Source of the DNA: a virus
Length of the DNA stretch: 19,854 nucleotides
Reading direction: 5' to 3' (one strand)
UHGV virus genome: UHGV-0075699
Of the stretch, positions 3,482 through 19,854 are shown one piece after another (within the stretch, counting starts at the first letter, position 1; every line of letters begins with the position of its first letter). A program made the translations under genes and the position numbers. Under the pieces are notes generated by a model. That model did no database searches. It was given only the letters and a program-made list of their open reading frames with translations, and was not told where the DNA came from.

Positions 3482-4007
3482 CAAGCCCCCAGCACGTCAG
3501 CGCACTTTCCTGATCACGGCGCGTTACCTGCCCGTAGCAGTTATTGGAGCGCACCCGGCAATCCTTCCCTCCGTCTTTAATCCACCAGCGAATCGCTTCA
3601 CATGCGCCTTTACGGTCGCCAGCGTTAATCCGCTGGTAGAACGTCGACGGGAAGCAGCGACCGGGACCGATGTTGTACGGACAGAATGAGGCAATGCCGA
3701 CTTTTTGCGGTGGGGTCAGTGGAACGTGGATATTCCGATCAACCCACGCCAGCGCCTTATCACGTTCGACAGCATTCACCTCATCGCATTTGGTCTGGGT
3801 CAGTTTCATACCCTGCGTGACGGGTTTACCATCAATACGCGTGGCACCGCGGCAAATAGTCCAGATCCCCTGGCTGCCATCGCGATACGCGGTCAGCCTG
3901 TTCCCTTCTTTCTCATCAAGGAACTGATCCATTAGAGTAGGCGCAGATGCACCGGCAGCAATGAGCGCCAGCATGGCAGCGCTGAGTTTTGTTTTCATCG
4001 ATGCCAT
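3468..4007 (-). CDS. Endolysin, GH24 lysozyme (T4/P21-type) with N-terminal secretion signal or SAR domain
   Basis: [23 protein letters not shown] matches the E..D..T catalytic triad spacing of T4-type lysozymes; the N-terminus [21 protein letters not shown] is hydrophobic and Ala/Gly-rich with an AxA site. Confidence 0.85.
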
Positions 4008-4364: not shown

Positions 4365-4772
4365 TTACCGGACAATTATTTCCATTTTTTGTCCTAGTAC
4401 CGATAGTGCTTTTTGAATGGTGTCGATCTTGGTGCTATGACCAAGAGACACGATTCGCTGTACCTCCTGAGGGCGCGTATTAATCATGCGGGCCAGTTCA
4501 GCGTTACTGGTATTGGTACTGACCAGGCGGTTTAGCAATAATACCTTCGCCGCCACGCTTGATGGCACTTCAACAAACGCCTCACCCTCTGCTGAAGGTG
4601 CGGGGATCTCCCGGCGGTCGTCAAAATAGAAATCAAACGCCGTAACCAGGGCATCCTGCGCCATTTCTAACGCTTCCTCCCTGGTTGCCCCTCCCGTCAT
4701 TGCCTCGGGGATATCTGGGAAAAATACCGCCCAGCCGGTTTCGTCATGCTCAAAATTTACCGGATATCTCAT
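4365..4772 (-). CDS. hicB: HicB antitoxin
   Basis: From the internal ATG at 4772 the protein reads MRYPVNFEHDETGWAVFFPDIPEAMTGGATREEALEMAQDALVTAFDFYFDD...LSVLGQKMEIIVR, matching the recalled E. coli HicB pattern (MRYPV...FVDIPEA...DAL.TAFDFYFED...). Directly downstream of hicA. Confidence 0.85.
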   Translation of the reverse strand: MRYPVNFEHDETGWAVFFPDIPEAMTGGATREEALEMAQDALVTAFDFYFDDRREIPAPSAEGEAFVEVPSSVAAKVLLLNRLVSTNTSNAELARMINTRPQEVQRIVSLGHSTKIDTIQKALSVLGQKMEIIVR

Positions 4773-4819
4773 ATTGATTAAGTGAATCTCCACGAGTACC
4801 AGCCCCGGAGGGCTGGTTT

Positions 4820-5945: not shown

Positions 5946-7006
5946 TATGCTTTTATAATTGCGCCGATCGCCATAGCTCGATCAAGAAAACGGAACAGCA
6001 GCTCCAACTGCGTGCCATTCTTCTCTTCAAAGGCGTTAACATCGGCATGTAGCTCGTCGTGGCACTCTCTGCACAGAGGAAACACGAAGAGATCGTGGGC
6101 TTTGGTTGCGGTACCGCCCATGCCATGGCCGATGACATGATGCGGATCGTCAGCTGGTCTGCGGCAGCATTCGCATGGTTGATGCTTAACCCAGTCGGTA
6201 TAAGTCTTGCTTACCCAGCGACGGCGCTTTGGCCTGAGCATGAAAGATTCCGGCGATTCCGGATCGGCAGTCAGCGCAAGCCCCTTCGGCTGGTCCTGGT
6301 GCGCCTGGACATTTTCGTTGCGCCTGCATTGCCTTGCTGTGCCTGCAGCTGGCAGTTTCTCCTGCAGAATGCTGGTGGCCGGTAAAGTAGGCCGGATATC
6401 GCTTTCTTTATACACCGACAGGAACGGCTCTTCAGGCAACCCTAGACCACGCTGCGCCATCGTCTCCGTAATGGCATCGGCTATACCTGACTGAACTGCC
6501 CACCAGCACAACTCTGCGATTGAAAGAGAGCGTTCTTTGTTATAACCGAGCCCGATCAGCACAGTATCTATTACCCAGTCGACTACATTACGAAGTGCCA
6601 GCGCCTCGATAGCTGGAGTCGACTGCTCCCGCAGTTTATTGTCACAATGCCAGCACACCAGCAACGCACCAGGCGGATGTCGCATCGTTACCATCTCGTT
6701 ATGGTGGTACTCGGAATGAGGGTACTGGCACCTCTTCAGCCGGAGAAACAGCCACCGTTCAAGCGCTGGCAATCCACCAGCAGCACGAATCACACGCTCA
6801 TCGGAAAAGAATACGTGCAGGCTGGAATCCTCCGCTAAAGGTTGTCGGGCATCAGGGACACGACCAGATGGCAAGCGGGCCATATTTTGTGGTTCAGCCT
6901 CGACTAAAACACGCCCGGCAGAAAACAGGTGCATCAGATCACGGCCGGGCTTAAATAGAACCACGCCGAGGCGTGGCACAATCTCAGGGGTGAGTAACGC
7001 TCTCAT
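5945..7006 (-). CDS. Cys/His-rich nin-region protein, DUF968-like with HNH-like metal-binding C-terminus
   Basis: C-terminal region HQPCECCRRPADDPHHVIGHGMGG...FPLCRECHDELH has paired CxxC and His clusters typical of HNH/zinc-binding nucleases; a second Cys cluster (LLVCWHCDNK) lies mid-protein. Start overlaps the MTase stop. Confidence 0.45.
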   Translation of the reverse strand: MRALLTPEIVPRLGVVLFKPGRDLMHLFSAGRVLVEAEPQNMARLPSGRVPDARQPLAEDSSLHVFFSDERVIRAAGGLPALERWLFLRLKRCQYPHSEYHHNEMVTMRHPPGALLVCWHCDNKLREQSTPAIEALALRNVVDWVIDTVLIGLGYNKERSLSIAELCWWAVQSGIADAITETMAQRGLGLPEEPFLSVYKESDIRPTLPATSILQEKLPAAGTARQCRRNENVQAHQDQPKGLALTADPESPESFMLRPKRRRWVSKTYTDWVKHQPCECCRRPADDPHHVIGHGMGGTATKAHDLFVFPLCRECHDELHADVNAFEEKNGTQLELLFRFLDRAMAIGAIIKA

Positions 7007-8853
7007 GCAACCTCACGCCGACCAGAAACACAAATTTCAGGAAGGTTTGCTCTTACAATCGCCTCAGCAAAGGGCGGCGGCACGGCGTTTCCGCACCTGG
7101 CGACTTGTTTCTCTTTCGAGTACCTCTTGCCGCGGTAGTCACGATCAATGATGTACCAGTCAGGGAATCCCTGAGCGCGGTAAAGTTCATGCGGCTGCAG
7201 CATGCGCATTCCGATATCAACAATGCGGTAAACAATACCCTTAATCGTCACCAGTTCGCTGACGCCAAAAGAATTCAGGAACTCTTTGACCTGATCCGCC
7301 CGGCGCTCGTCGTAATCATTAGCCGCCAGCAGCGCGCGAACCTCTCCAACATGCTGACCTCCAGCGGTGATTGTCGGCATTGGTTCACTGGTGCGCTGGC
7401 CATCGCGGCAGGTACCGCGCAGTTTAACCAGATGAGACGTAACCAGCGCATGGTGATCGACTGTGGTAACTGAGTGTGCAGGATCGTCCAGTCCGACGCC
7501 CGGGCCGGTATAGTTCCCGCCGTAGTGTTTCGCCAAAAACGCAGTTGTTACGGCAAATTTATTGCCACCAGCTACAACTGTTCCCAGCGGTTTACGCAGA
7601 TTTAGAACGCGCGGCGACTGCCCTACACGTTCGCCATACCCCATCTGAATAAGTGTGGCCGCGACAAGCTGTGACTTCCCCCCGCCGCCAGCGGTAATTG
7701 TTGCGCTGGGTTCATCCGCCCGGTGGCCGATGCTGGCGCCGAACTGACGCGCGATAACTGGCGCAACCAGGCAGGAGCGAGACTGTTTAAGGATGGTATG
7801 AGCGGGTTTATTCAATGGCCGCGGTTTCGCCTGGTACTCGCTACCCCCATTACCTGCCAGGAATGGAACCAACGTCGGTAACGCCAGCGCATAACCGTGG
7901 GTTTTGGTGATGGTTTGCAGGGGATCGGCCAGCGACTGTCCGCGGAAGCAATCATATTTACCGCGTGTTGTGGTGTGGTTGCATTTGACGATGAACGGAT
8001 TATCACTTTCGACGACAAACCGCTGGATGCCGCGCGCTATCCGTTTCAACGTGTTAATGGCCAGCGGCTTTTTACGGTCAAATATCGATGGTGCAGGAAT
8101 AGACCAGTCGATACACTCAGCAGCTGTCCGCCATGGTGCCAAATTTCCGGATTTAACTGCTGCGGATTTAGGGTCACCGTGAGTGACTCCCGGCCAGGCA
8201 ATGGGTTTATCGTCACAACGCATCAACATGAAGAATCGCTTGCGGATCGTCGGAGCACCATAATCACTGGCACGCAGTTCGCGATATTCGACCTTATACC
8301 CGAGGCCAGCAATCAGTCGTTTGGCTTGTTTGCCATCCGAGGATATGCCGAGAAATTCGCAACATTCGTACAGAGCCGGGTGATCCGCAGGTATACCAGT
8401 GGAAAGCATTCCAACAAATGCCAGGAAGGTTTCACCAGAACGCTTAGGATCAGGACGCATCTCACATGAAAGCAGCGGGCCCCACGTTTTAAATTCTTCA
8501 ACATTTTCGAGAGCCATTACACGAGGGCGAACATCCAATGCCCAGCGAACAGATACCCAAGCCAGGCCACGAATCTCACGTTTTACCGGTTTACTGCCGC
8601 GCGCCTTTGAATAGTGGGTACAATCCGGGCTGAACCATGCAAACCAGACAGCCTTTCCACCTGTCGCAGCGACAGGGTCAACGTCAAAGACGTTTTCACA
8701 ATAATGAAGCGTGTCCGGGTGATTCGTCCGGTGCATGGCCACGGCGTTTTCGTCGTGGTTAATGGCAATATCAACGCTGCGGCCGATCGCCATTTCTATC
8801 CCGGTAGATGCCCCACCACCGCCAGCAAAATTATCAACAATCAGCTCACGCAT
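7003..8853 (-). CDS. DNA (cytosine-5)-methyltransferase with large variable/target-recognition region
   Basis: Motif I DNFAGGGGAS (AdoMet binding), motif IV SPDCTHYS (catalytic Pro-Cys), motif VI ENV, C-terminal CGNAVPPP (motif X). About 400 aa lie between motif VI and the C-terminal motifs. Confidence 0.85.
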   Translation of the reverse strand: MRELIVDNFAGGGGASTGIEMAIGRSVDIAINHDENAVAMHRTNHPDTLHYCENVFDVDPVAATGGKAVWFAWFSPDCTHYSKARGSKPVKREIRGLAWVSVRWALDVRPRVMALENVEEFKTWGPLLSCEMRPDPKRSGETFLAFVGMLSTGIPADHPALYECCEFLGISSDGKQAKRLIAGLGYKVEYRELRASDYGAPTIRKRFFMLMRCDDKPIAWPGVTHGDPKSAAVKSGNLAPWRTAAECIDWSIPAPSIFDRKKPLAINTLKRIARGIQRFVVESDNPFIVKCNHTTTRGKYDCFRGQSLADPLQTITKTHGYALALPTLVPFLAGNGGSEYQAKPRPLNKPAHTILKQSRSCLVAPVIARQFGASIGHRADEPSATITAGGGGKSQLVAATLIQMGYGERVGQSPRVLNLRKPLGTVVAGGNKFAVTTAFLAKHYGGNYTGPGVGLDDPAHSVTTVDHHALVTSHLVKLRGTCRDGQRTSEPMPTITAGGQHVGEVRALLAANDYDERRADQVKEFLNSFGVSELVTIKGIVYRIVDIGMRMLQPHELYRAQGFPDWYIIDRDYRGKRYSKEKQVARCGNAVPPPFAEAIVRANLPEICVSGRREVA

Positions 8854-9742
8854 GGCTCACCCCCTGCATGCTTTCTACCAGTCCACCAGCAACAGTGATG
8901 ATCTCGCTGGTGGGCATACGCTCCAGCCACAGCTGGTTAATTTGCGCCATCAGCTTGTTTTGCTGGGACGGCTCCAGTCCTTCGGATCCTTCTACCTGTC
9001 GAAACACAAGCCCTACCTCCAGTGGCCAAATACGCGATTCCGTCTCTGGTAATTGCGTAGGCGTTGCGAGTGGTTCTACTGCCGCCGGCTGCGACATTAC
9101 CTGTGCTGGAGTATTGCCAACAGCAAACTGCGCCAGCATCATGAACGCTTGCCCTTTCCTTTCCAGATCCGCACGGTGGATATAGCCGAACCGCTCCCCG
9201 CGCCAGGCCTTATCAAACACGGCAATGGCGCCCGCAAAAAACGCGCTGGTGGGCTTTTGCTTATCATCAGCAGGGACAAACCACGCCGGGAGGTCGAATC
9301 CAATACGACCACGAATAAACATGATGTGATCGGCATCTTCTGGCCACCATGTTTCGCTCGGTGCTGCTTTGATGAGAAATACATAGCGCCCGCCCTTCTC
9401 ACGCTGCGCTGACGCGTAATTCATGATGTGCGTCATGCCAGTTATCGCCTGCTTTTCGTGGTACTGGGAGCGGCTATACGGTGGGTTGCCAAAGCCAGCG
9501 CCGCCAAGTTCTTCCAGACGAGCGGACCAATCTTGCGTCAGCGCGTTGTCTTCGGCGGTGAACCATACCGGGCATTTTGCGTTGCTATCGTCAGCAAACA
9601 GGTCCAGTACCAGCGGTCCAAACATTGCGTTAACGCCCCAGAACAGCAGATCAGGCGTGCGCCACTGATCACCAACGTCTTTCAGAAAATGGGACGGTGC
9701 AGCGCGCATGGCCGCCAGCGATTCACAATATGCATTCGTCAC
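8846..9742 (-). CDS. Phage-type DNA N6-adenine methyltransferase
   Basis: Contains GFGNPPYSRSQ (the NPPY motif of N6-adenine / N4-cytosine amino-MTases) with upstream AdoMet-binding-like segment. 8-nt overlap with the downstream C5-MTase gene. Confidence 0.8.
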   Translation of the reverse strand: MTNAYCESLAAMRAAPSHFLKDVGDQWRTPDLLFWGVNAMFGPLVLDLFADDSNAKCPVWFTAEDNALTQDWSARLEELGGAGFGNPPYSRSQYHEKQAITGMTHIMNYASAQREKGGRYVFLIKAAPSETWWPEDADHIMFIRGRIGFDLPAWFVPADDKQKPTSAFFAGAIAVFDKAWRGERFGYIHRADLERKGQAFMMLAQFAVGNTPAQVMSQPAAVEPLATPTQLPETESRIWPLEVGLVFRQVEGSEGLEPSQQNKLMAQINQLWLERMPTSEIITVAGGLVESMQGVSHA

Positions 9743-17659: not shown

Positions 17660-17869
17660 ATGGCAAAACTAATGAAGGCGAGTCAATGGGGCAAACGCGA
17701 ATTTGCCAAAGACTCTATTCCGGATAACCGAACCATTAAACGTTGGGTTGAAAATGGGCTACTCACAGGGAAGATCGTCGACGGTTCTGTTTTCGTCTTC
17801 GAGTCTGAAAAATGGGGAGTCGACTCAATGGTTAATCATACGGTTCGACAGCTAATAAATGAAGGTTGA
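17660..17869 (+). CDS. xis: Excisionase (Xis-like DNA-binding protein)
   Basis: 69-aa protein immediately upstream of and overlapping int; segment NRTIKRWVENGLLTGKIVDGSVFVFES resembles lambda Xis (ETVRRWVRECRIFPPPVKDGREYLFHES). Confidence 0.65.
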   Translation: MAKLMKASQWGKREFAKDSIPDNRTIKRWVENGLLTGKIVDGSVFVFESEKWGVDSMVNHTVRQLINEG

Positions 17870-17871
17870 CC

Positions 17872-19050
17872 ATGGCAGCCAGACCAAGAAAAAGAGAATA
17901 TCGCCACCTTCCAGAATATCTTTTATTTGATAAAGATCGCGGTGTTTATAAATTTACTCTTATAACAGGAAAGAAAAAGAACCTTGGTAAAGATCGAGCT
18001 ATGGCGATTGCTGTAGCTCGCGAATACAACCTAAGAATGAGACCATTAAACGTACCATCTGTTGATGTATTAATTAGGGAATCAGGTGGTATCGCTGGTG
18101 AGGCCAAACCATTTGCTGAATATGTAGACCATATTATGAACCGAGCAATTGAGAATGAGCGGCCATCACAAAATACCCTCGACGATTGGAATAATGATGC
18201 CATTCGTGTGAAAGAATTTTTTATCAATATTCCCGCTTGCGATATTGAACTGGAGCATGTAAACGCCTACATAAACCATTATCATGCTGAAGCTTCAGCA
18301 AACGTACAGAATAGGAAAGTCAGCTTCCTTAAAAAACTTTTCTCCTATGCGGTCGATGAATCATTAATGTTTGATAACCCGGCCACACGTAAAAAGATGC
18401 GCAGGACTGAGGAGAAGAAACGGCAGCGCCTGTCACTCGAACACTTTAAAGCCATCAGACGCGCCGCCGAGCCATGGCTACGGACTGCGATGGATTTAGC
18501 ATTGCAGACGACGCATGCGCGCCTTGAGGTGTCACGAATCCGATATTCAATCAGTGAGCCAAAAGATGGCGTCTGCGGGTGTGTATGGCTTGCACAGCCG
18601 GAAAACGGGATTTATGGCACGCTGTACATTCACCGCCAGAAAGTACAGAAGAAAGAGGCCTCGCATGTCGCAATCCCGATCGGGGAAGAGTTGAAGCGGA
18701 TTATTGACGAAAGCCGCGATAATGTAGCCAGCCCGTTTATCGTTCACCGGATTCCAGATAGGCAGGTTAAGCGTAGTAAAGAAGTTTCACACCCAACACA
18801 GGTTGCGCCGGACTATCTGAGCCGGTCCTTTTCAGCGGTGCGCGACAAACTTGGCTTATGCGACAAACTGGCGATGGACGAAAGACCAACCTTTCACGAA
18901 ATTCGAGCGCTGGCCGCCCATCTTTTTGATCAGCAAGGTATCGATCCGCAAGGACGAATGGCGCACAGTGATGCGAAGTCGACCAAGATTTACACGCAAA
19001 ACCATATCGATTGGGTTGTCGTTCCACATGGTGAAATTAAAGCCGGATAA
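17872..19050 (+). CDS. int: Tyrosine integrase (lambda Int family)
   Basis: C-terminal catalytic region contains PTFHEIRALAAHLF (H-x-x-R box, compare lambda PTFHELRSLSARLY) and the tyrosine-containing STKIYTQNH; arm-binding-type basic N-terminus. Start placed at ATG 17872 (GAAGG RBS); ORF track begins at TTG 17866. Lies next to the tRNA-derived att core. Confidence 0.9.
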   Translation: MAARPRKREYRHLPEYLLFDKDRGVYKFTLITGKKKNLGKDRAMAIAVAREYNLRMRPLNVPSVDVLIRESGGIAGEAKPFAEYVDHIMNRAIENERPSQNTLDDWNNDAIRVKEFFINIPACDIELEHVNAYINHYHAEASANVQNRKVSFLKKLFSYAVDESLMFDNPATRKKMRRTEEKKRQRLSLEHFKAIRRAAEPWLRTAMDLALQTTHARLEVSRIRYSISEPKDGVCGCVWLAQPENGIYGTLYIHRQKVQKKEASHVAIPIGEELKRIIDESRDNVASPFIVHRIPDRQVKRSKEVSHPTQVAPDYLSRSFSAVRDKLGLCDKLAMDERPTFHEIRALAAHLFDQQGIDPQGRMAHSDAKSTKIYTQNHIDWVVVPHGEIKAG

Positions 19051-19203
19051 CTGCTGTTATCTCTAAAATTTGTTGGGGTGAAACTCCCCCCTAACTCATT
19101 GATGTATATAGAGCATATTTTGCTAAAAAAGCACTGTTTGTTTATACATGCAAACATCCCTCTCCACCAGCAATGGCGCGGCTTTCAGCGTTTTGAAAGC
19201 GGT

Positions 19204-19251
19204 GTCATGGGGTGTCGGGGGTCGGAGGTTCAAATCCTCTCGTGCCGACCA
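19204..19251 (+). tRNA. 3' fragment (about 48 nt, anticodon loop to CCA) of tRNA-Pro(GGG); prophage attachment core, not an intact tRNA
   Basis: GTCATGGGGTGTCGGGGGTCGGAGGTTCAAATCCTCTCGTGCCGACCA matches the recalled 3' portion of enterobacterial proL (anticodon GGG, T-loop GGTTCAAATCC, acceptor CGTGCCG-A-CCA). The upstream 30 nt cannot pair with the acceptor 3' strand, so the 5' half of the tRNA is absent here. Confidence 0.55.
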
Positions 19252-19298
19252 AATCATTCACCGGTAGGTTATCTTAACCACCGGTAACCCCTTAAGAA

Positions 19299-19329
19299 CC
19301 CGCATCCTCTCTGAGCCTGCGGGTTTTTT
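19299..19329 (+). terminator. Probable terminator of the host tRNA locus
   Basis: CCCGCA ... TGCGGG inverted repeat followed by TTTTTT, about 50 nt after the tRNA 3' end. Confidence 0.4.
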
Positions 19330-19484
19330 AATGCCCGAATCCGCCCCACCGACACGGTCGCGGTCCGCGCTCGAATCCATCCCCGTTTCCGTGCTGCCGA
19401 TGAACAAACTCCGACCTTACTGATTGTAAAACGAAGAATAGCTTCTATTATTCGTCGTACTTGCCTGACACCGGAACAATTAAT

Positions 19485-19854
19485 ATGAGAGTTAATGGAC
19501 TTACGAAGGGATTTTTTATCCTGATTTTGCTGATGGTCAGCCTCGCCTTTTTTAATGTTCTTTCGCCTTATTATTCAGCCATACTGTGGGCCGCGATTCT
19601 GTCGGTCATCTTCAACCCGGTAAAGAACAAATTGCGGGCTCGCCTCGGTGAGCGCAATGACCTGGCATCGTTGTTGACCGTGGTGATTATCTGCCTGATT
19701 GTTTTCACGCCGCTGGCGATCATCATTTCATCGCTGGCGTTCGAGCTAAACCTGGTTTACACCCGGCTTCAGCATAATGACACCCAGTTTCCGGTGGTGG
19801 TGGCAAACCTGTTTGCCCATCTGCCCGAGTGGGCCAGAAGCTTTCTCTCCGAAC
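19485..19854 (+). CDS. Host inner-membrane protein, probable AI-2E (PerM/YdiK-type) transporter family; N-terminal part, CDS continues past window end
   Basis: Open frame from ATG 19485 to the window end: MRVNGLTKGFFILILLMVSLAFFNVLSPYYSAILWAAILSVIFNPVKNKLRARLGERNDLASLLTVVIICLIVFTPLAIII... shows alternating TM helices and the conserved loop pattern of AI-2E family proteins. Not in the ORF track because no stop codon falls within the window. Confidence 0.45.
   Translation, partial: MRVNGLTKGFFILILLMVSLAFFNVLSPYYSAILWAAILSVIFNPVKNKLRARLGERNDLASLLTVVIICLIVFTPLAIIISSLAFELNLVYTRLQHNDTQFPVVVANLFAHLPEWARSFLSE

Follow-up and report, generated by a model that had tools for sequence, protein, structure and literature searches.

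Here we examine the int-side end of a prophage in the virus genome UHGV-0075699 (UHGV), a stretch of 19,854 nt read 5' to 3' on one strand and referred to throughout as the window. The window is an ordinary lambdoid prophage arm that runs from terminase through int. Genes for the terminase small subunit, an endolysin, a holin, a Q-like antiterminator, DNA methyltransferases, replication functions, an antirepressor and a Cro-like protein lie on the minus strand, and the plus strand carries genes for a CI-like repressor, YfdP/YfdQ-like proteins and an exonuclease, a 69-amino-acid (aa) open reading frame (ORF) and int. Downstream of int, positions 19051-19330 had been described in an initial annotation as a prophage-host junction inside a tRNA-Pro gene, with the 3' part of the tRNA alone beside int, and this is the arrangement that our analysis recovers: int is followed by 153 nt of phage DNA, by a displaced fragment of the tRNA-Pro(GGG) gene proL, by a host terminator and by the beginning of a host transporter gene (Table 1).

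The fragment is identical over its full length (48/48) to E. coli K-12 proL, annotated as tRNA-Pro(GGG), and equally (48/48) to proL of Raoultella planticola, R. ornithinolytica and Raoultella sp. It covers tRNA positions 29-76, the CCA at 19251 included, and is thus the kind of partial copy, identical to the 3' part of a full tRNA gene, by which integrative elements can be recognised; left of 19204 the alignment with K-12 proL shows no real identity. The identity starts at G29, on the 5' strand of the anticodon stem. Its extension to the CCA had been read correctly in the initial annotation, whereas its start had been placed in the anticodon loop, 3 nt too far downstream. The 32-nt 3' end of the tRNA has one copy in the window and none in 200 shuffles. 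An intact tRNA at 19175-19251 is ruled out by ARAGORN, by the Rfam score and by the fold. Indeed, ARAGORN finds no tRNA and no tmRNA in the whole window, as had been foreseen, and the sole tRNA-clan match that the Rfam covariance models return from 18950-19500 is a sub-threshold match to tRNA-Sec (16 bits against a gathering cutoff of 47, E=2.5), which spans 19175-19246 with the model aligned end to end. Neither the tRNA finder nor the covariance models yield a complete cloverleaf for 19204-19251, and neither the label of a tRNA gene nor that of a pseudogene of unknown origin is appropriate for the segment; tRNA fragments of such origin are a recognised annotation pitfall (PMC9897764).

From the first base of the fragment rightward the window matches unoccupied chromosomal DNA. 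Between 19204 and the window end, 651 of 651 bases are identical to the proL locus of R. planticola ATCC 33531, and for R. ornithinolytica and Raoultella sp. the identity over the same stretch is 95% and 85%, respectively. At all three unoccupied Raoultella sites homology begins exactly at 19204, and the prophage boundary is fixed to the base (19203/19204). The intact proL of ATCC 33531 represents the uninfected state and gives the bacterial attachment site (attB). When the tRNA 3' end together with the first 15 flank bases was used as a query against one genome per species, it matched three Raoultella genomes only, each with an intact tRNA-Pro(GGG) at that place, and element-free relatives with the intact tRNA and the same 3' flank are thus available in three Raoultella species. 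In three metagenome Raoultella contigs proL is likewise unoccupied, with an intact tRNA and the same flank. Two strong hairpins lie 3' of the fragment, the second of which enters a T6 tract (folding free energy, dG, of -17.8 kcal/mol, z = -5.8), and the interval 19252-19332 as a whole folds with a dG of -31.6 kcal/mol (z = -6.2). A simple consensus terminator scan missed 19294-19329, a negative that reflects a limitation of the scan, the hairpin having an internal loop. Both the hairpins with their T6 tract and the AI-2E family transporter gene that follows are identical to R. planticola, in agreement with the earlier description of a host-type terminator and a host membrane-protein gene after the fragment. 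These identities indicate that the host is R. planticola or a very close relative, and they place the attachment site in proL.

The 153 bp between the int stop and the tRNA segment belong to the phage, as had been supposed. They are homologous to the same interval in the free phages Eeyore, Flotzy and Phi06_2987, as well as in 25 distinct IMG/VR relatives, and have no counterpart at the unoccupied Raoultella attB; in the free phages the same tRNA segment follows, and after it comes phage DNA where the window has host DNA. A phage attachment site (attP) with the tRNA segment lying between element DNA on both sides is found in Eeyore, Flotzy and Phi06_2987 and in the related loci L108/L012 and L032. 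In the closest relative (L012/L108, integrase 99% identical), the complete attP consists of the window's arm, the 48-nt segment and an int-distal arm; in L108 this distal arm holds a terminator hairpin, CCAGCC...GGCTGG, with a T-run, and then the repeats ACGGGGAGTTA TTGGGGTGAAAC TGGGGTGAAAAC.

The gene beside this arm encodes a tyrosine integrase of the lambda Int type, whose stop lies directly ahead of the arm. The protein matches the PHROG_1 integrase (E=1e-30) and, over its full length, the lambda Int structures 1Z1G/5J0N (E=1e-11, 28% identity). Its first 55 residues match Pfam PF09003, Arm-DNA-bind_1 (22.7 bits against a cutoff of 22), and from residue 3 onward it aligns with the N-terminus of lambda Int, so that an N-terminal arm-type DNA-binding domain is present; indeed, RefSeq names the orthologue in E. 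coli LD91-1 'phage integrase Arm DNA-binding domain-containing protein'. Pfam Phage_int_SAM_5 follows at 25.3 bits. In the alignment with lambda Int, the Lys, the HxxR and the second His are invariant columns, and an Arg and a Tyr each fall one column off lambda's catalytic residues R212 and Y342.

Both ends of the element can be seen in two relatives, in which the intact tRNA proposed for the distal junction, beyond the structural genes, is present. In finished E. coli LD91-1 the order is yejM/lapC, an annotated tRNA-Pro (77/77 identical to K-12 proL), a 40-kb prophage, int, cargo, a 49-nt fragment and yejO. Behind the tRNA the prophage continues with a DinI-like gene, then tail, head, lysis, Q, replication and repressor genes and int (88% identical); an 870-bp cargo ORF comes next, and the 49-nt fragment is unannotated. 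IMG/VR contig 3300029450_000003 (40 kb) begins at tRNA position 5, and the D-arm and the remainder of the tRNA lead into a phage-type distal arm; at its other end lie int (92% identical), the proximal arm, a 49-nt fragment and a K-12-type host flank. Among 80 integrase-bearing loci, the 24 informative ones all have only a partial tRNA after int; the rest are trimmed short of the attachment site, and 28 fragment-less ones end in cargo genes at provirus boundaries and are uninformative. ARAGORN called no tRNA at the int-side junction of 28 related loci. The window contig ends in packaging genes, inside the prophage, and its own far end lies outside; by analogy with these relatives, we infer a regenerated full tRNA there.

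In view of this, 19051-19330 is very probably the int-proximal junction of a lambdoid prophage in proL of R. planticola or a close relative. Read in the direction of the tRNA, the junction is attR. The attP of the free phage would be composed of the int-proximal arm, a tRNA copy of ~50 bp reaching from the anticodon stem to just past the CCA, and an int-distal arm that brings a terminator of its own and carries arm-type repeats, three in tandem. The lambda-type tyrosine integrase, with its arm-binding N-terminus, would recombine attP with the host tRNA gene by strand exchange, the 7-nt anticodon loop being the most likely place. At the far end of the prophage the host 5' half, joined to the phage 3' copy, would then restore a complete tRNA; the 3' part native to the host, still with its original terminator, would stay beside int, and it is this part that the window shows. 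A junction of this kind is an ordinary, already known outcome of tyrosine-integrase insertion in a tRNA gene.

Table 1. Features at and around the prophage-host junction of UHGV-0075699 (window coordinates; a dot marks a feature without strand).
Feature	Position	Strand	Basis
69-aa ORF directly upstream of int; candidate excisionase	17660..17869	+	position only; no homology support
Tyrosine integrase, lambda Int type, 392 aa, transcribed toward the attachment site	17872..19050	+	PHROG_1; lambda Int structures
Int-proximal attP arm, phage DNA kept at the junction	19051..19203	+	homology to free phages and relatives
Candidate arm-type integrase site TTGGGGTGAAAC	19073..19084	+	conserved block TGGGG(A/T)GAAAC in all relatives
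Conserved block TAACTCATTGATGTATATAG (TAAnnCATTGATGTATATAG)	19092..19111	.	nearly invariant in 25 relatives
Conserved block GCACTGTTTG	19131..19140	+	alignment; CACTGTTTG invariant in 25 relatives
Inverted repeat GCTTTCA-N6-TGAAAGC	19181..19200	+	window, L005, L012, L032 and L038 only
Displaced tRNA-Pro(GGG) 3' fragment, positions 29-76 with CCA	19204..19251	+	48/48 proL; not called by ARAGORN
50-bp identity block of the closest relative's attP and Raoultella attB	19204..19253	+	attB (L100), attR (window) and attP (L108) side by side
Anticodon loop ATGGGGT, anticodon GGG at 19209-19211; most likely 7-bp overlap	19207..19213	+	inference from 24 relatives
Host proL 3' flank: hairpin 19260-19285, terminator hairpin 19294-19328 and T6 19324-19329	19260..19329	+	folding; identical in unoccupied R. 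planticola
AI-2E family transporter gene, 5' part, runs off the window	19485..19854	+	Pfam PF01594; 100% identical to R. planticola

Several results weigh against this interpretation. The crossover is not fixed by the sequence, attP and attB being the same over 50 bp; the catalytic domain of the integrase (Pfam Phage_integrase, PF00589) scores 20.5 bits, under the gathering cutoff of 27.1; and no excisionase was recognised by homology in Pfam, PHROGs, PDB, NCBIfam or a BLASTP comparison with lambda Xis. Furthermore, a pattern specific for the other junction, attL (Raoultella 5' flank, full tRNA, phage-type AAAA), had no match in metagenome contigs, and a relaxed attL scan of these contigs returned three Raoultella loci, all of them unoccupied. 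Viral contigs gave ten matches with an intact tRNA; their 5' flanks are E. coli-like or of other kinds, and in no case that of Raoultella. The unobserved far end of the window element and the lack of an excisionase recognisable by homology would also suit a real junction that belongs to a cryptic or defective remnant, in which the far end has been deleted or rearranged without a regenerated tRNA, or in which excision no longer takes place. The tRNA-Pro(GGG) is dispensable in E. coli, so such a loss could be tolerated. Such a remnant is nonetheless very unlikely: the int ORF is intact and the identical protein occurs in several independent genomes and assemblies, the attachment-site arm retains all conserved blocks, the 19-kb window has complete and ordered lambdoid early, lysis and packaging genes, and the full tRNA is present in those relatives in which both ends are visible. 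An origin of the junction in assembly, with phage and host reads joined through the shared 48-nt tRNA segment, could be suspected from the low coverage of the metagenome assembly (cov 3.8), and the free phage would likewise contain the 48-nt repeat. The sequence is not such a chimera, to judge from two other independent assemblies (L009 and L010) in which the same junction and host flank recur at 99.8% identity or more; NCBI isolate genomes and one finished E. coli chromosome have equivalent junctions as well, and we regard a chimera as extremely improbable.

It is conceivable, too, that the junction has been given a function of its own, with phage positions 19174-19203 and the fragment together forming a chimeric tRNA-like RNA that serves, for example, as a 3' processing signal of the int transcript. 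The sequence TGGCGCG (19174-19180) pairs 7/7 with the acceptor 3' strand at a spacing of 32 nt, against 31 in the native tRNA; in 26 relatives the 7-mer at this place pairs at 5.9/7 positions on average, as compared to 2.6 +/- 0.8 at other offsets; and the Rfam match described above takes in 19175-19246 end to end with a tRNA-clan model. That match, however, stays far below its cutoff (16 against 47 bits, E=2.5), ARAGORN is silent at the junction both in the window and in the 28 related loci, and the minimum-energy fold contains no cloverleaf. Resemblance to the proL 5' half is of marginal significance (p about 0.01-0.1, from non-independent sequences), the D-arm-like hairpin is not conserved, and transitions that break the pairing occur, e.g., TAGCGCG. 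On balance a functional chimera of this kind is highly improbable. A further reading, in which a degenerate tRNA 5' half survives in the int-proximal attP arm and attP, along with the int-side junction, encodes a tRNA-like element downstream of int, is very unlikely as well. If true, the element could be a vestige, and evidence that a complete tRNA-Pro gene gave rise to this attP family, or, alternatively, a processing signal for the int transcript with a role like that of the lambda sib retroregulator. The weak resemblance of 19174-19205 to the tRNA 5' half, the one mildly unusual trait of the junction, may be an ancestral vestige, or perhaps a GC-rich protein-binding site.

For an insertion into proL, which we prefer to these alternatives, comparison among relatives narrows the position of the crossover. 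With attB, attR and attP set side by side, the shared sequence spans 19204-19253 and is lost on either side. The proL identity of all 24 informative relatives starts at tRNA position 28, 29 or 31 (29 in the window, 31 in Eeyore and Flotzy, 28 in LD91-1), which is 1-4 nt before the loop, and it runs on without a break across positions where the survey demanded no match; the proximal arm is heavily diverged. What the phage contributes to the regenerated tRNA lies entirely to the right of the crossover, so selection would keep the identity from the crossover rightward but not beyond it to the left, and an identity that always starts just before the loop points to an overlap at or near the anticodon loop. 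The crossover most likely lies in that loop, at 19207-19213, consistent with the range of about 19200-19215 suggested previously. In a wider set of at least 120 viral contigs (L104-L217) that join the proL 3' end to a phage-type terminator, the lengths of perfect proL identity form two clusters, at 29-36 nt and at 45-55 nt. This suggests that at least two integrase classes use proL, with crossovers in the T-arm and in the anticodon region, respectively. The fragments of two relatives also vary internally, that of L082 by two substitutions (TTCGAATCC, CTCATGCC) and that of L025 by a single one in the T stem, variants that could stem from host species with a different proL or from decay of the displaced fragment.

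Within the int-proximal arm, the best candidate for an arm-type integrase site is TTGGGGTGAAAC. An identical 12-mer forms the middle of the three tandem ~11-bp repeats in the int-distal arm of L108, and putative arm-type sites distinct from the core are thus repeated in both attP arms. The L086-L089 clade has ATGGCGAAAC at the position of 19073-19084 and ATGGTGAAAC-type repeats in the distal arm, both arms having shifted to an ATGG(C/T)GAAAC version; since the clade-specific motif is present in both, the arms co-vary. In the 19.9-kb window the degenerate arm motif has two occurrences only. We consider TTGGGGTGAAAC a better candidate than the two inverted repeats that had been offered as possible integrase core or arm sites, which are not conserved as inverted repeats among the 25 relatives: one half of each is kept, with no compensatory changes. 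The spacer of the GCTTTCA/TGAAAGC repeat is 6 nt and not 7 as first given, and relatives outside the subgroup that has this repeat carry non-complementary sequence at the same position. Likewise, CAAACA (19151-19156), the supposed partner of TGTTTG, varies freely, while the TGTTTG half is kept within CACTGTTTG, which means that the half-site is conserved and not the inverted repeat. Two further blocks stand out in the arm. The block TAACTCATTGATGTATATAG (TAAnnCATTGATGTATATAG) includes, on the minus strand at 19092-19103, an IHF-like site, CATCAATGAGTTA, that fits the IHF consensus WATCAANNNNTTR save at its first position and that IHF may bind; the block GCACTGTTTG is possibly the site of an accessory protein.

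On the other side of the tRNA segment, a phage-borne terminator (AACCAGCC-loop-GGCTGG-T7), which would serve the regenerated tRNA, lies in the first ~45 nt past the CCA in the distal arm of L108 (reverse strand), L002, L003, L091 and L103. It resembles the E. coli proL terminator (AACCAACC-loop-GGTTGG-T7) and not that of Raoultella, even in the relative whose integrase is 99% identical, which suggests an Escherichia-like proL locus as the original source of attP. Among relatives, the spacing between the int stop and the tRNA segment falls into two modes, 132-165 nt, the class of the window, and 1.1-3.2 kb. The long class (L012, L025, L030, L047, L073, L075, L078, L103 and others) holds cargo in this place, a hypothetical ORF in the case of the 870-bp insert of LD91-1, and the interval between int and the attachment site thus appears as a slot for accessory genes.

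A candidate excisionase is suggested by position alone: the 69-aa ORF directly upstream of int has counterparts of similar size just upstream of int in L005-L009 (69 aa), LD91-1 (69 aa) and Eeyore and Flotzy (74 aa). Searches with this ORF gave a weak helix-turn-helix match in Pfam (E=0.008), none in PHROGs and nothing usable in NCBIfam, and BLASTP against lambda Xis gave E=0.73. A PDB sequence search returned spurious WD40 matches, artefacts of summed short repeats, and an AlphaFold2 (AF2) single-sequence model was unusable (predicted local distance difference test, pLDDT, of 52). A resemblance to lambda Xis was not borne out by these searches.

The window's phage type is not confined to Raoultella. 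Two NCBI assemblies, L005 and L006 (GCA_044387495.1 and GCA_048538025.1), encode a 392-aa integrase identical to that of the window, and their DNA from the candidate xis to the terminator is 98% identical to it. Similarity ends at the proL terminator, at window position 19333, and the flank directly past the CCA has diverged (AAAATTTAACCGG... vs AATCATTCACCGG...). There the AI-2E gene is followed by ecotin and mqo and then by alkB and ada, an order that matches the region downstream of proL in E. coli. With flanks that have diverged around an identical integrase, the same phage type sits at proL in at least two different enterobacterial hosts. Another contig, IMG/VR 2916441648_000002 (84 kb), carries two related integrases, L086 and L087, ~42 kb apart; behind each come 46 nt of proL and a phage-type arm, and the contig looks like two tandem prophages at proL.

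Anticodon-centred integration into tRNA genes by tyrosine integrases is a familiar mode of insertion, described by Williams and colleagues (Williams 2002), and the principle underlies the Islander database. The arrangement in the window corresponds to Islander class A (Hudson, Lau and Williams 2015, PMC4383910), in which a tRNA gene is the target, the element's 3' copy begins in the anticodon stem, the gene is regenerated at one end and the 3' fragment displaced at the other, and the integrase gene lies beside the attachment site. There is no difference of substance, and the window is one more instance, at R. planticola proL. A 3' tDNA fragment remains at 3,760 of 3,919 mapped islands, and 2,083 of the islands belong to the anticodon-centred attP class (PMC4383910); proL itself is listed as a prophage site in Shiga toxin-producing E. 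coli (STEC) O121 (PMC8767318). The Escherichia phages Eeyore (PP925821) and Flotzy (PP925827) and the proL prophages of E. coli, e.g., that of LD91-1, are among the nearest known relatives, with an integrase 79% identical in Eeyore and 88% in LD91-1, a homologous int-proximal arm, the same attP tRNA-Pro(GGG) segment and the same target; the difference lies in the host genus, Raoultella in the window. Some proL-phage relatives have 1.1-3.2 kb of cargo between int and the attachment site, whereas the window has none.

The integrase would work in the manner of lambda Int. With lambda Int and its attP the window system shares an integrase that has arm-binding, core-binding and, probably, catalytic domains and aligns over its full length at 28% identity, an int gene read toward attP, three tandem arm repeats in one arm and one in the other, and an IHF-like site. 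The two differ in that the window's target is a tRNA gene, as opposed to the intergenic gal-bio site of lambda, and in the identity block, which measures ~50 bp here and 15 bp in lambda. Furthermore, the three arm repeats of the window's family are int-distal, whereas lambda's widest annotated arm-binding feature ('int 4', 41 bp), which holds lambda's three tandem arm sites, overlaps the 3' end of int. No homologue of Xis is recognisable in the window.

What is gained here is a prophage boundary known to the base and a host and attachment site for this contig. The comparative description of attP (core, arm-type repeats, phage-borne terminator) could aid the delimitation of prophages in Enterobacteriaceae and the design of vectors that target proL; the practical value is limited, and no new biological question is raised. 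Elsewhere in the window, a 153-aa plus-strand ORF without a PHROG match (2293-2754) is surrounded by minus-strand genes, with that for the endolysin on one side and that for the terminase small subunit on the other. On the minus strand, an ORF for a HicB-like antitoxin lies between the Q-like antiterminator and the holin (4365-4793), and the gene for a 616-aa DNA methyltransferase adjoins that for a Dam-type methylase (7003-9742).

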